From contig JBJMGU010000271.1 of the NCBI GenBank assembly GCA_045807765.1, positions 1,200-65,199 of the forward strand: a DNA stretch of 64,000 bases. Reading direction: 5' to 3'. The notes below the pieces were generated by a model. That model was not told the origin of the DNA. It saw nothing but the letters and a program-made list of their open reading frames with translations, and did no database searches. This DNA comes from Blastocatellia bacterium (GTDB lineage Bacteria > Acidobacteriota > Blastocatellia > UBA7656). How positions within the stretch are numbered: position 1 is the first letter of the stretch; every line of letters starts with the position of its first letter. A program made the position numbers and the translations under genes. Positions 7,590 to 34,031 of this stretch are shown here, in pieces.

Positions 7590-9203
7590 ATGAAGACTCC
7601 AGACCTGGTTTTGAAACGTGGGATAATCTATGACGGCACAGGCCGCCCGCCTGTAACTGGCGACATCGGCATCTTTGGTGACTCCATTCAGGCGATTGAC
7701 GCCGCAGGCGCGCTGCACGGCGCGGACGAGATCGATTGCCAGGGCTTGAGTATCGCGCCCGGCTTCATCGATACGCACAGTCACTCGGACATCCGCGTTC
7801 TGACCGAGCCGCAGTTGCCGATGAAAGTCCGCCAGGGCATCACGCTTGAAGTCTTCGGCCAGGACGGCTTGTCGGTCGCGCCCATTCGCCGCGAGGATCG
7901 GCGGCAGGTGGCCGAGCAGCTCGCCGGCCTTGACGGCAGCCTCGATCACGAGTGGGAGTGGCATACGGTCGCCGAATACCTTGAGGCCATCGAGCGGGCG
8001 CGGCCTTCGCTCGACTGCGCTTACTTGATTCCGCACGGTCAGGTGCGGCTCTACGTGATGGGCATGGAAGACCGCCGGGCAACCGTCGAAGAAATCGCCG
8101 CCATGCAGCAACTCATTCGCGAAGCGATGCGCGATGGCGCGCTGGGATTGTCAACCGGCCTGATCTATCCACCCTGTTGTTATGCGGACACCGCTGAATT
8201 GATCGAGCTGGCGCGCGCGGTCGCCGAATTCGACGGCGTCTTCGTCGCGCACATGCGCAGCGAGAGCGATTACATCGAAGACTCTGTGGCCGAGATGATC
8301 GAGATCGGCCAGTCTGCCCAGGTGCGCGCTCACATCTCGCATTTCAAGATCGCCGGGCGCGAGAACTGGCCGCGCATCAATACGGTGCTCGAGATGATTC
8401 ACGCAGCGCAGGTGGCGGGCCTGCGATTGACTGCCGATCAGTATCCTTACATCGCCGGCTCGACTATGCTCAGCGCCATGCTGCCGCCGTGGGCGCACGC
8501 CGGCGGCGTCAAAGCAACGCTGGCGCGGCTGGTCAGTGCGGACGAGCGCCAGCGCATGCGGCGCGAGATGTTCGACCGCAGCCCGGCGCACTGGGACAAT
8601 TTCTGGAAGTGGTCAGGCCCCGAAGGCATCATCGTCTCTGACATCCCTTCGGGCAATCACCCTGAATACGTGGGCAAGAACCTTGCCGAAGCCGCCGCTC
8701 TGGCGCAACAGGCCGAGCAGGTCAGTGAAGAGGCCGCAATGGAGTTTGCGTTTGACTTGCTGGCCGCAGAGCGCCTGGGCGTCGGCATGATCAGCTTTAG
8801 CCAGTCGGAAGAGGTTGTCCGCAAGATCATCACGCAGCCTTACGTCAATGTCTGCACCGACGGCTTGCTCGGCGGCAAACCGCACCCGCGCGCTTACGGG
8901 ACGTATCCGCGCATCCTCGGTCGCTACGTGCGCGAGCAGAAGCAAATTTCACTTACGGAAGCGGTGCGCAAGATGACGGGGCTTGCGGCAGAGACCTTTC
9001 AGTTGAAACGTCACGGCGTGATCGCCGAGGGCCGACGGGCGAACCTGGTCGTCTTTGACGCCGCGCGCGTGATTGACACCGCGACGTTTAGCGATTCGCG
9101 GCAATACCCCGAAGGCATCGATCACGTTATTGTCGCCGGCCAGCCGGTGATTCGCGACGGCCAATCTTACATCGAAGGCAGCGGCACGGCCATCAAGCGA
9201 TAA
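7590..9203 (+). CDS. N-acyl-D-amino-acid deacylase (D-aminoacylase), amidohydrolase superfamily
   Basis: Amidohydrolase metal-binding motif GFIDTHSHSD and the overall ~540 aa D-aminoacylase architecture. The start is ambiguous among 7536, 7581 and 7590. Confidence 0.8.
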   Translation: MKTPDLVLKRGIIYDGTGRPPVTGDIGIFGDSIQAIDAAGALHGADEIDCQGLSIAPGFIDTHSHSDIRVLTEPQLPMKVRQGITLEVFGQDGLSVAPIRREDRRQVAEQLAGLDGSLDHEWEWHTVAEYLEAIERARPSLDCAYLIPHGQVRLYVMGMEDRRATVEEIAAMQQLIREAMRDGALGLSTGLIYPPCCYADTAELIELARAVAEFDGVFVAHMRSESDYIEDSVAEMIEIGQSAQVRAHISHFKIAGRENWPRINTVLEMIHAAQVAGLRLTADQYPYIAGSTMLSAMLPPWAHAGGVKATLARLVSADERQRMRREMFDRSPAHWDNFWKWSGPEGIIVSDIPSGNHPEYVGKNLAEAAALAQQAEQVSEEAAMEFAFDLLAAERLGVGMISFSQSEEVVRKIITQPYVNVCTDGLLGGKPHPRAYGTYPRILGRYVREQKQISLTEAVRKMTGLAAETFQLKRHGVIAEGRRANLVVFDAARVIDTATFSDSRQYPEGIDHVIVAGQPVIRDGQSYIEGSGTAIKR

Positions 9204-10032
9204 TCAGCCCGGCGTACTGGTCTACGAGTGGCATGACGGTGTCGCGGTCGGCAGGCGGCAGCATCAGGATAGCGCGCTCGACGCCAATGGCTTCGAGTTG
9301 ATCCAGGGCTTCGCGCTCGGGCTTCGCGCCAAAGATGGTAATCGAAATCGCCTGCGGGTCACGGTCCGCCTCTTCAGCGCGGCGGCGCAACTCAGCGATC
9401 TTTTCAGCCAACCCCTCCAGGCGATAACCGATTGGCATCCAGCCGTCACAGAACTCGGCCACGTAATCAAACGTCTTGGACGCAAATCCGCCCATGAAGA
9501 TCGGCGGGTGGGGCTTCTGCACAGGCTTCGGGTATGACCAGACGGGATCGAAGTTGACGAAGCGCCCGTGGAACTCGGCTTCCTCTTTCGTCCAGATCTC
9601 TTTCATCGCCAGCACGCGCTCGCGCAGCAGGCTGAAGCGCGTCTTGTAGGCGGTGCCGTGATTTTCCATCTCTTCAGCGTTCCAGCCAGCGCCGATGCCG
9701 AAGATGAAGCGCCCGTTCGACAGCCGGTCGAGACTGGCGACCTCTTTGGCCGTCGTGATGGGATCGCGCTCGATGATCAAACAGATGCCGGTCGCAACCT
9801 TGAGCTTCGTGGTGACGCTTGCCGCCGCCGTCAGCGCGACGAACGGGTCATAGGTGTGCCAGTACTCTTTCGGCAAATCGGTGCCGCCGGGGTAAGGCGT
9901 GCGGCGGCTTGCGGGAATGTGCGTGTGTTCGGGAACCCAGAGCGATTCAAAGCCGCGCGCTTCAAGCTCGCGCGCCAGATCGTCCGGGCGCATCGCGTAA
10001 TCGGTGGAAAACATGCCGGCGCCGTAAAGCAT
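9193..10032 (-). CDS. LLM-class F420-dependent oxidoreductase
   Basis: Luciferase-like family sequence: ...GFESLWVPEHTHIP...GICLIIERDP.... Start at MLYGAGMFST, with GGAGG 5 nt upstream. Confidence 0.8.
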   Translation of the reverse strand: MLYGAGMFSTDYAMRPDDLARELEARGFESLWVPEHTHIPASRRTPYPGGTDLPKEYWHTYDPFVALTAAASVTTKLKVATGICLIIERDPITTAKEVASLDRLSNGRFIFGIGAGWNAEEMENHGTAYKTRFSLLRERVLAMKEIWTKEEAEFHGRFVNFDPVWSYPKPVQKPHPPIFMGGFASKTFDYVAEFCDGWMPIGYRLEGLAEKIAELRRRAEEADRDPQAISITIFGAKPEREALDQLEAIGVERAILMLPPADRDTVMPLVDQYAGLIIA

Positions 10033-33409: not shown

Positions 33410-33447
33410 GACAAACATTGCGAACGCAATGGAGCTCGTTAACTCAA

Positions 33448-33804
33448 TTACTTCGGCTCGACCGCGCCGCCGACATCGAGCCATGCATCGAAGCCGCCTT
33501 CTAAGGCATATGACCGCTGGAAATCATGATCACGGAGTACTTGCGCCACACGGGCGCTTGAGCCTTCGTGCGGTCAGGTGCAATAAGTCACGATCATGCG
33601 GTTGCGCGGCATGTCGGCCAGATGTTGCTCGATTGCATCAGCCGGCACACGCACCGCGCCCGGCAAGCGCGTGTCGGCGGCGGCCCAGGCTTGCGGGTTG
33701 CGCGCGTCAACGAAGTAAACCGCTTCGCCGCGATTCATTCTATCGATCACATCGCTCGCCGAGATTCGCAAAGGCTCTGGCGCATTCTGCACATTGGCGC
33801 TCAT
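33448..33804 (-). CDS. Single-domain rhodanese-like sulfurtransferase with an in-frame TGA at 33576-33574: candidate selenoprotein (Sec at the catalytic position) or nonsense pseudogene
   Basis: The ORF track ends at ...MIVTYCT*. Reading through the TGA in the same frame continues PHEGSSARVAQVLRDHDFQRSYALEGGFDAWLDVGGAVEPK* to a TAA at 33450-33448. The downstream segment aligns with the GlpE catalytic segment (quoted from memory) (C)YHGNSSKGAAQYL...DGGFEAW, with the TGA at the catalytic Cys column. Confidence 0.6.
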
Positions 33805-34031
33805 TTGTGTTACCTCCTGGATGAATTCGCGCTCATCTGAAATTAAAAGGCAATCACTATACCGCGCGCCCGCGGCGTCTGGGTCAACACGGCGCGTCAG
33901 GTTGTATGGTTCGCGCGCTCAGGCTGTCCGATTCGCCGCCATTGACACTGCCTCTGAAGCTCAACTATCATCGGGATTAATGCATTTGACTCGTCTGCGA
34001 ATGCCTTTGACCTTTAGCCAAGGAGAAGCGA

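Follow-up and report, generated by a model that had tools for sequence, protein, structure and literature searches.

The DNA analysed here, which we call the window, is a stretch of 64,000 nucleotides from a metagenome-assembled genome (MAG) of a soil acidobacterium, a Blastocatellia bacterium (GCA_045807765.1, contig JBJMGU010000271.1, positions 1,200 to 65,199; coordinates of the locus are counted from the first base of the window). On its minus strand lies a gene for a small rhodanese whose reading frame contains one internal TGA codon (Table 1). Ahead of this codon stand 76 sense codons, the last of which encode ...RMIVTYCT, and beyond it the same frame runs for 41 more codons (PHEGSSARVAQVLRDHDFQRSYALEGGFDAWLDVGGAVEPK) up to the TAA at 33450-33448. 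A first-pass annotation of the DNA had already reported both that the open reading frame (ORF) halts at TGA 33576-33574 after ...IVTYCT and that the frame continues for 41 codons, and we confirmed these points from the sequence. The rhodanese similarity that it saw past the TGA is likewise borne out: when the in-frame stop was set to Cys for the scan, the Pfam family Rhodanese (PF00581) spanned it (residues 15-109, profile positions 1-100 of 102, E 1.8e-13, 51.2 bits, cutoff 22.2), and the halves either side of the TGA complemented each other, one matching profile positions 1-68 and the other 72-100 of 102. Public annotation ends at the TGA; the GenBank entry MFL6278277.1 is a 76-aa 'rhodanese-like domain-containing protein' (33574-33804, minus strand), and the JGI annotation likewise gives 76 aa. 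TGA is also the commonest ordinary stop in the window and closes 23 of 38 long ORFs; the code in use is therefore the standard one, and a genome-wide reassignment of UGA can be rejected. We propose that the internal TGA of the rhodanese gene is almost certainly read as selenocysteine (Sec). The best explanation of the locus as a whole, which we consider very probable, is a functional single-domain rhodanese of 118 residues in which the UGA at 33576-33574 is recoded as Sec.

Table 1. Features of the rhodanese locus (window coordinates; CDS, coding sequence; SECIS, selenocysteine insertion sequence)
Feature	Position	Strand	Remarks
AGGAGG, Shine-Dalgarno-like	33813..33818	minus	read from the sequence; 8 nt 5' of the ATG
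Single-domain rhodanese of 118 residues, predicted selenoprotein, complete CDS	33448..33804	minus	76 codons + UGA/Sec77 + 41 codons + TAA
Start codon ATG	33804-33802	minus	
Cys75 codon TGC	33580..33582	minus	conserved; probably the canonical rhodanese active-site cysteine
In-frame UGA, predicted selenocysteine 77, C-T-U motif	33574..33576	minus	TGA/Cys alternation in homologues
SECIS-like hairpin	33543..33557	minus	stem 33557-33553 GCGCC with 33547-33543 GGCGC; loop 33552-33548 CGUGU
True stop TAA	33448..33450	minus	pN/pS climbs to 0.95 past the TAA
Weak terminator-like hairpin 3' of the stop, uncertain	33421..33438	minus	one consensus match

The homologues of the gene alternate between TGA and Cys at this one codon. 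A protein search returned 97 homologues, counted as protein clusters; about 70 are 64-76 aa long with the C-terminus ...YCT, and about 20 others, at 110-126 aa, are full-length proteins with the sequence TYCT-C-PHE(G/A)SS. A scan of one genome per species gave 52 loci, mostly in Blastocatellia and Pyrinomonadaceae, with two in Terriglobales and one in Acidobacteriaceae. When the homologues are aligned at this column, as the first-pass annotation had suggested, the codon is TGA in 30 and TGC or TGT in 20 of 50 species-level loci. Every TGA locus keeps its frame open as far as a stop at the equivalent position, and the combination of TGA, open frame and a hairpin just downstream was found again in 30 other species-level genomes. 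Cys75, two residues before the predicted Sec, is invariant in 50/50 loci. Comparative work on selenoproteins looks for Cys homologues at the TGA (PMC1088965, PMC9312934), and these are present here in the 20 genome loci and about 20 database proteins. We estimated the ratio of nonsynonymous to synonymous change (pN/pS) from pooled pairwise substitution counts in 31 TGA-type genes. It is 0.37 in the 20 codons 5' of the TGA, 0.11 in codons +1 to +5 after it and 0.35 in codons +12 to +38, and reaches 0.95 past the real stop. In a rough neighbour-joining tree, Sec-type genes represent the deep, widespread state, and Cys-type genes make up a nested Pyrinomonadaceae clade plus two distant outgroups.

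Metagenomes contain the same signature. Scanning them with a DNA pattern covering the UGA and the hairpin recovered at least 120 contigs, and at least 38 codons are open after the TGA in all 118 of the contigs with enough sequence; 103 contigs retain the GG(F/L)xAW motif, and 107 distinct peptides are encoded downstream of the TGA. Three divergent metagenomic relatives (L067 and L093 on the minus strand, L068 on the plus strand) read ...(L/V)FCT-U-PNEASSARVAL..., with Phe replacing Tyr before the Cys. They share the hairpin and its spacing of 16 nt, and the Sec-type family is therefore broader than the genome set shows. Two further observations concern individual loci. A 572-bp contig of the European Nucleotide Archive (L180:169-501, plus strand) encodes P0001, which shares 77% identity with the window protein; here a TGG codon for Trp takes the place of the TGA (at about 372-374), and the hairpin is fully intact. 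This is either a very recent Sec-to-Trp change or else a sequencing error; reading this Trp as a TGA under genetic code 4 was rejected, the codon being TGG. The MAG JBJMGP01 has two distinct TGA-type copies on different contigs and with different sequences (L006:10001-10333 and L007:6391-6726), which may be paralogues or reflect strain heterogeneity in the bin.

The hairpin downstream of the UGA, GCGCC-CGUGU-GGCGC, was noticed in the first-pass annotation as not convincing on its own. It is indeed present at 33557-33543, its stem set 16 nt from the UGA, and comparison gives it more weight than that annotation did, as it is a conserved element paired in 31/31 TGA loci. A gap-free alignment of the 31 TGA-type genes reads A-G-Y-G-C-C / N-G-U-K-U / G-G-C-R-C at nt +18 to +33, and the spacing is fixed at all 31 loci, at 16 nt from UGA to stem and 21 nt from UGA to loop. 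RNAalifold, run on the same loci, returned exactly a 5-bp helix and no other conserved structure, paired in 155/155 cells. One C-G pair of the hairpin shows a compensated change, to U-A, in 5 of the 31 loci and is U-G in 1; the G of the loop is invariant, and the U after it is kept in 29/31. The contrast with Cys-type genes is marked. Entropy at third codon positions within the hairpin is 0-0.7 bits in the TGA-type set vs 1.5-1.8 bits in 20 Cys-type genes, whereas the two sets do not differ in how freely third positions vary immediately beside the hairpin. Within the TGA-type genes, the synonymous component (pS) is 0.27 in hairpin codons vs about 0.69 in flanking codons, and all 5 pairs can form in 31/31 TGA genes vs 4/20 Cys genes. 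A SECIS-like stem-loop with a small, G-containing apical loop just 3' of the UGA, the feature sought in comparisons with bacterial SECIS elements (PMC1088965, PMC9312934), is found here. Because the structure is kept only when the codon is UGA, lies at a fixed short distance from it and has GU in a small apical loop, we infer that the hairpin acts as a bacterial SECIS. Taken together, the locus appears to have the features by which bacterial selenoproteins with a SECIS are recognized computationally.

The first-pass annotation placed the TGA on the catalytic cysteine of the rhodanese, and this part of its reading is probably wrong. An exhaustive profile search gave 30,126 matches at E <= 0.001, and we aligned 59 single-domain sequences comprising representatives of the best 150 matches and members of the family. 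Column 75 is Cys in 50 of the 59 sequences and column 77 in 32, never without C75; C75 stands alone in 18. In the AlphaFold model of a Cys-form homologue (P0006, 55% identical to the window protein; predicted local distance difference test (pLDDT) score of 90), a strand at 71-75 is followed by C76-T77-C78 and a helix at 79-93, with the first Cys directly after the central strand and the helix directly after the second. An active-site Cys at a strand-helix junction, as the rhodanese fold calls for, is thus seen in a model of P0006 rather than of the window protein, and the top Foldseek matches of this model are all rhodanese domains. Different alignments support different residues. The N-terminal Pfam match stops on C75, and alignments with the rhodanese domain of Alicyclobacillus 3tp9 and with Bacillus halodurans BH2092 place the active-site Cys on C75; the gap-free alignment with E. 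coli GlpE and the alignment with 6mxv place the canonical Cys on U77. We could reproduce the GlpE alignment of the first-pass annotation, with the TGA on Cys65, but it is not the sole defensible one, and the Pfam, 3tp9 and BH2092 alignments favour C75. Considering conservation, model topology and these alignments, the canonical rhodanese Cys seems rather more likely to be C75 than U77. If C75 is canonical, the site is a C-x-U motif in which Sec77, where the helix begins, would add a second redox residue, and not a simple swap of Sec for the catalytic Cys.

Reviews distinguish five forms of rhodanese-type selenoproteins (PMC13188914, PMC9312934). Among these, form 3, also called 'COG0607 form 2', corresponds to NF041203 (rhodanese_LYCAU), with the motif CxU and TKB26178.1 as an example (PMC13188914, PMC9312934); a 2022 review credits it to the 2005 bSECISearch paper of Zhang and Gladyshev (PMC13188914, PMC9312934). 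NF041203 is the best NCBIfam match of the window protein (84.4 bits, profile positions 20-126 of 126, cutoff 115), as it is of the other 11 sequences of our alignment A1 and of 9/10 further representatives; none of 20 relatives reaches the cutoff of 115 bits, their scores being 76-100 bits (best E 2.7e-27). The window protein shares with form 3 a single-domain rhodanese of about 120 residues and a Cys-x-Sec in the active-site region (C75-T76-U77), and both form 3 and the acidobacterial genes are known from prediction only. The two differ in motif, which is (T/A)YC(T/S)-U-P(H/N)E in our set (TYCTU in the window gene) and not LYCAU, and in that the branch described here is in Acidobacteriota (Blastocatellia, Pyrinomonadaceae, Terriglobales) and uniformly annotated as 64-76 aa. 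Since NF041203 is the best match but its cutoff is not reached, the acidobacterial TYC(T/S)-U/C-P(H/N)E group appears to be a sister branch, not yet curated, of the CxU rhodanese selenoproteins already known. We file it as a group that would work like the NF041203 family while lying outside NF041203 as now defined.

Other known relatives are instructive in part. Forms 1, 2 and 4 have UxxS or UxxG motifs and include Geobacter WP_010941598.1 and a 'rhodanese-related sulfurtransferase' from the Sargasso Sea (PMC13188914, PMC1088965). Like the genes studied here, they combine a rhodanese fold, Sec/Cys pairing among homologues and a SECIS hairpin that directly follows the UGA and carries a G in its small apical loop. 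In them, however, Sec occupies the place of the canonical catalytic Cys in the C-R-x-G-x-R loop, whereas in our group C75, probably the canonical Cys, is retained and Sec is additional at +2. Escherichia coli GlpE/PspE (PDB 1gmx) resemble the window protein in fold and size (Foldseek template-modelling (TM) score of about 0.64), and the gap-free alignment sets Cys65-YHGNSS of GlpE on U77-PHEGSS. The window protein nevertheless scores 41.1 bits to NF001195, below its cutoff of 102, and whereas GlpE carries one Cys and a cradle loop of 6 residues, the family studied here has two redox residues and, counted from C75, a loop two residues longer. The best profile and structural matches are BH2092 (PDB 3nhv/3o3w) and the 3tp9 rhodanese domain (profile E 6e-12 and 1e-10; Foldseek E about 1e-8, TM 0.71-0.74). 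BH2092 aligns without gaps through TYC-WGP-AC and shares the TYC and the Pro at +3, but both proteins are without Sec, and the second Cys of BH2092 is at +5 and not +2; being structural-genomics rhodaneses without an assigned function, BH2092 and 3tp9 give no guide to chemistry. As for the hairpin, it resembles the SECIS of the E. coli fdhF type (PMC9312934) in being a stem-loop that lies within the CDS just past the UGA and has a small apical loop, a conserved G-U and fixed spacing. It differs in that only the 5-bp stem and the pentaloop are conserved, with neither a conserved bulged U nor a lower stem.

Acidobacteria are on record with selenoproteins (PMC1794560). In our searches for the machinery of Sec decoding, tblastn with E. 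coli SelA, SelB and SelD, and additionally with an acidobacterial SelB for the metagenome loci, was run over the window and all loci and found SelB alone, in two Cys-type loci. In these two Pyrinomonadaceae genomes selB is 3-8 kb from the Cys-type rhodanese gene (L041:13531-15450 and L044:16640-18541, both on the minus strand), and the Pyrinomonadaceae SelB scores 359 bits against TIGR00475 (cutoff 242). A search with this SelB returned at least 8000 candidates at E <= 1e-60, the best 120 of which are at least 67% identical; so many close homologues suggest that Sec decoding is common in the clade. The SelB records that we traced belong to the assemblies JBHEMV01, JALZOO01, DATEPB01 (that of L044, Cys-type), DASQKG01 and DASYKX01 and to JGI/Logan contigs. 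The neighbourhood of selB is conserved (L041, L044, L057-L059, L181-L187) and consists of a NifU-like gene, a GT4/BshA-like gene, a gene for an acidobacterial VWA protein, selB itself, two short ORFs that lack annotation (about 71 and about 115 aa) and a gene for a GH5 enzyme; no selA, selD or tRNA-Sec lies next to selB at these loci. One JGI soil metagenome, 3300018469, contains both a TGA-type contig (L118, Ga0190270_10507476) and a Pyrinomonadaceae selB contig (L181, Ga0190270_10000106), which shows co-occurrence in a sample and not in a genome.

Several results weigh against the selenocysteine interpretation. The hairpin is short (5 bp), lacks a conserved lower stem and shows covariation at one pair only; moreover, the fold of the window sequence taken by itself is unremarkable (z -1.47), so the argument is carried by the comparative contrast between TGA-type and Cys-type genes. 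The 64-kb window has no selA, selB, selD or tRNA-Sec, and tRNA-Sec and Rfam scans of it gave no match. tRNA scans of the 52 genome loci, 3 selB loci and 120 metagenome loci also gave no tRNA-Sec, and neither this tRNA nor selA or selD was found in about 0.9 Mb of genome and 0.57 Mb of metagenome flanks. None of the 7 traced SelB records is from a TGA-allele assembly or from the source MAG. No other selenoprotein gene was detected in the window. A codon-usage scan for further in-frame-TGA genes there gave 23 candidates; apart from the rhodanese, each was rejected, either as an ordinary stop or as an antisense shadow. When the window and the collected loci were scanned for UGA plus a GU-loop hairpin with an open frame, the rhodanese family alone was found, one extra conserved UGA/hairpin pair (L018/L025) being rejected as the antisense shadow of a 333-345-codon ORF. 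Finally, the window neighbours (purD, the class-A beta-lactamase-like gene and methylmalonyl-CoA mutase) give no functional clue, and the chemistry we prefer for the protein, described below, is drawn from motif and fold only.

These points have to be set beside what other explanations can offer. A nonsense pseudogene was the alternative named in the first-pass annotation; in this explanation, or if the product genuinely has 76 residues as entered in GenBank (MFL6278277.1), the downstream frame would be a decaying remnant. Gene callers and NCBI do annotate 76 aa, TGA is the usual stop codon in this genome, and the Sec machinery of the source genome is presumed. However, 30 other species and at least 120 metagenome contigs have this TGA too, and the 38-45 codons beyond it are open in every case; pN/pS after the TGA equals the upstream value and is far under that past the real stop; a product of 76 residues would, in addition, miss the last strand and helices of the rhodanese fold. 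Conservation in the other genomes and pN/pS contradict such decay, which we regard as very improbable. The pairing of TGA and Cys in 50 genomes, purifying selection beyond the TGA and the conservation of the hairpin in TGA-type genes instead uphold the preference of the first-pass annotation for a selenocysteine rhodanese. A split into two genes, the N-terminal part stopping at the TGA and the C-terminal part beginning at an internal start such as GTG 33549, could draw on a GTG-start ORF of 33 codons in the same frame (33448-33549), but that start falls after the conserved PHEGSSAR, where purifying selection is strongest (pN/pS 0.11), the codons directly after the TGA are conserved in frame at all loci, and Cys-type homologues are single polypeptides. 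We give it next to no credence, and no more to a one-base sequencing or assembly error, for example TGC or TGG read as TGA. The source is indeed a MAG and one related contig reads TGG, but an independent JGI contig gives the identical 76-aa call, 30 independent genomes and no fewer than 120 metagenome contigs also have TGA here, and the hairpin conserved only in TGA-type genes is present in the window gene. Because pseudogene, split gene and sequencing error cannot account for the comparative data, we consider that the TGA is, on the strength of these comparisons, a translated codon and not the lesion of a pseudogene.

A translated UGA might still encode a residue other than Sec, inserted by a suppressor or recoding tRNA, and we leave this a small chance. 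Candidates would be Cys, through a tRNA-Sec-like tRNA-Cys(UCA) delivered by SelB; Ser, if an acidobacterial allo-tRNA had the anticodon UCA; or Trp, if the hairpin promoted near-cognate read-through. Irregular 8/4 and 9/3 'allo-tRNAs', possibly nonsense suppressors, have been described in Acidobacteria, and SelB-compatible tRNA-Cys(UCA) in other phyla (PMC5389517). The allo-tRNAs lend the idea some support, as do the lack of Sec machinery linked to a TGA-type genome (window, flanks and the 7 SelB records), an irregular tRNA-like element 3 kb from one TGA-type gene, and the contig with TGG, encoding Trp, at the site (L180). The element (L022:13471-13549, minus strand) is 79 nt long and has its CCA end encoded; ARAGORN labels it 'tRNA-???', its anticodon loop being irregular, it matches the two ends only of the Rfam transfer-messenger RNA (tmRNA) model (35.8 bits, gathering threshold 47), and its folding energy is -37 kcal/mol (z -2.0). 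It resembles in this the irregular tRNAs of Acidobacteria (PMC5389517), but has no UCA anticodon call, and as a tRNA-Sec or suppressor it was rejected because only the ends of the tmRNA model match. Against insertion of another residue, a redox motif that alternates between Cys and TGA and is followed, at the distance of a SECIS, by a GU-loop hairpin is the classic signature of Sec, the selC* type of tRNA-Cys is not reported in Acidobacteria (PMC5389517), and SelB is common in the clade; if the residue were Cys, there would be little reason to keep the TGA and the SECIS over deep divergences. Since no selA, selD or tRNA-Sec is linked to any TGA-type genome, there remains a slightly slimmer prospect that the locus is a conserved non-Sec UGA recoding site, widespread in soil Acidobacteriota, at which an irregular suppressor-type tRNA or a SelB-delivered tRNA-Cys(UCA) acts and the hairpin is the recoding signal.

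Returning to selenocysteine as the preferred assignment, the sequence suggests how the site could work. If the hairpin is a SECIS, SelB carrying Sec-tRNA(Sec) would bind its GU loop when the ribosome reaches the UGA and would deliver Sec there in competition with release factor 2. In the protein, motif and fold suggest a C-x-U redox pair in the rhodanese active site, in which Cys75 would close the central strand and Sec77 would open the helix that follows. Cys75 may carry the persulfide (or a perselenide), as in other rhodaneses, and Sec77 may attack the Cys75 persulfide or an acceptor adduct to give a transient selenenylsulfide, a step that would speed sulfur release or reduction; the Cys-for-Sec paralogues would perform the same chemistry more slowly. 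We prefer this assignment, though the reverse, with Sec as the primary nucleophile, may also hold.

The surroundings of the gene add little to this picture. In the window, the rhodanese gene is by itself, flanked by a class-A beta-lactamase-like gene in convergent and a methylmalonyl-CoA mutase gene in divergent orientation. The terminator-like hairpin 3' of its stop is not evidence by itself, with 1 consensus match vs a mean of 0.9 in shuffled sequences. At 14 other loci (5 Sec-type and 9 Cys-type), a class I S-adenosylmethionine (SAM) methyltransferase gene lies directly 3' of the rhodanese gene, for example at L010:10440-11201 (plus strand); the enzyme is generic, weakly ArsM/UbiE-like and under all curated cutoffs. 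Cys-type loci share an upstream molybdopterin oxidoreductase of the FdhF/YdeP family, a GAF protein and a pirin (L043:5740-8196 and 8973-9755). The methyltransferase, the FdhF/YdeP-type oxidoreductase, the GAF protein and the pirin are all absent from the vicinity of the window gene. With unrelated neighbours in the window and a generic methyltransferase elsewhere, gene neighbourhood was rejected as a clue to function.

The protein described here is of a kind already known, the catalogued CxU rhodaneses, and its acidobacterial branch is unannotated; the finding does not overturn current understanding. About 70 protein clusters, and MFL6278277.1 with them, are recorded as fragments of 64-76 residues, which amounts to a systematic annotation gap. 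NF041203 does not reach these fragments, and hundreds of soil-metagenome annotations would be repaired by lowering its cutoff or adding a sister model. One selenoproteome review does not mention Acidobacteriota (PMC13188914). Our comparisons point to a Sec rhodanese that is widespread and anciently conserved in this phylum, mostly in soil metagenomes (Blastocatellia, Terriglobia). The compact, highly conserved hairpin of 15 nt would be a convenient minimal SECIS for studies of acidobacterial SelB, and the natural occurrence of Sec and Cys versions within one family would provide a clean system in which to determine what Sec contributes, beside the probable catalytic Cys of the rhodanese, at a C-x-U site.

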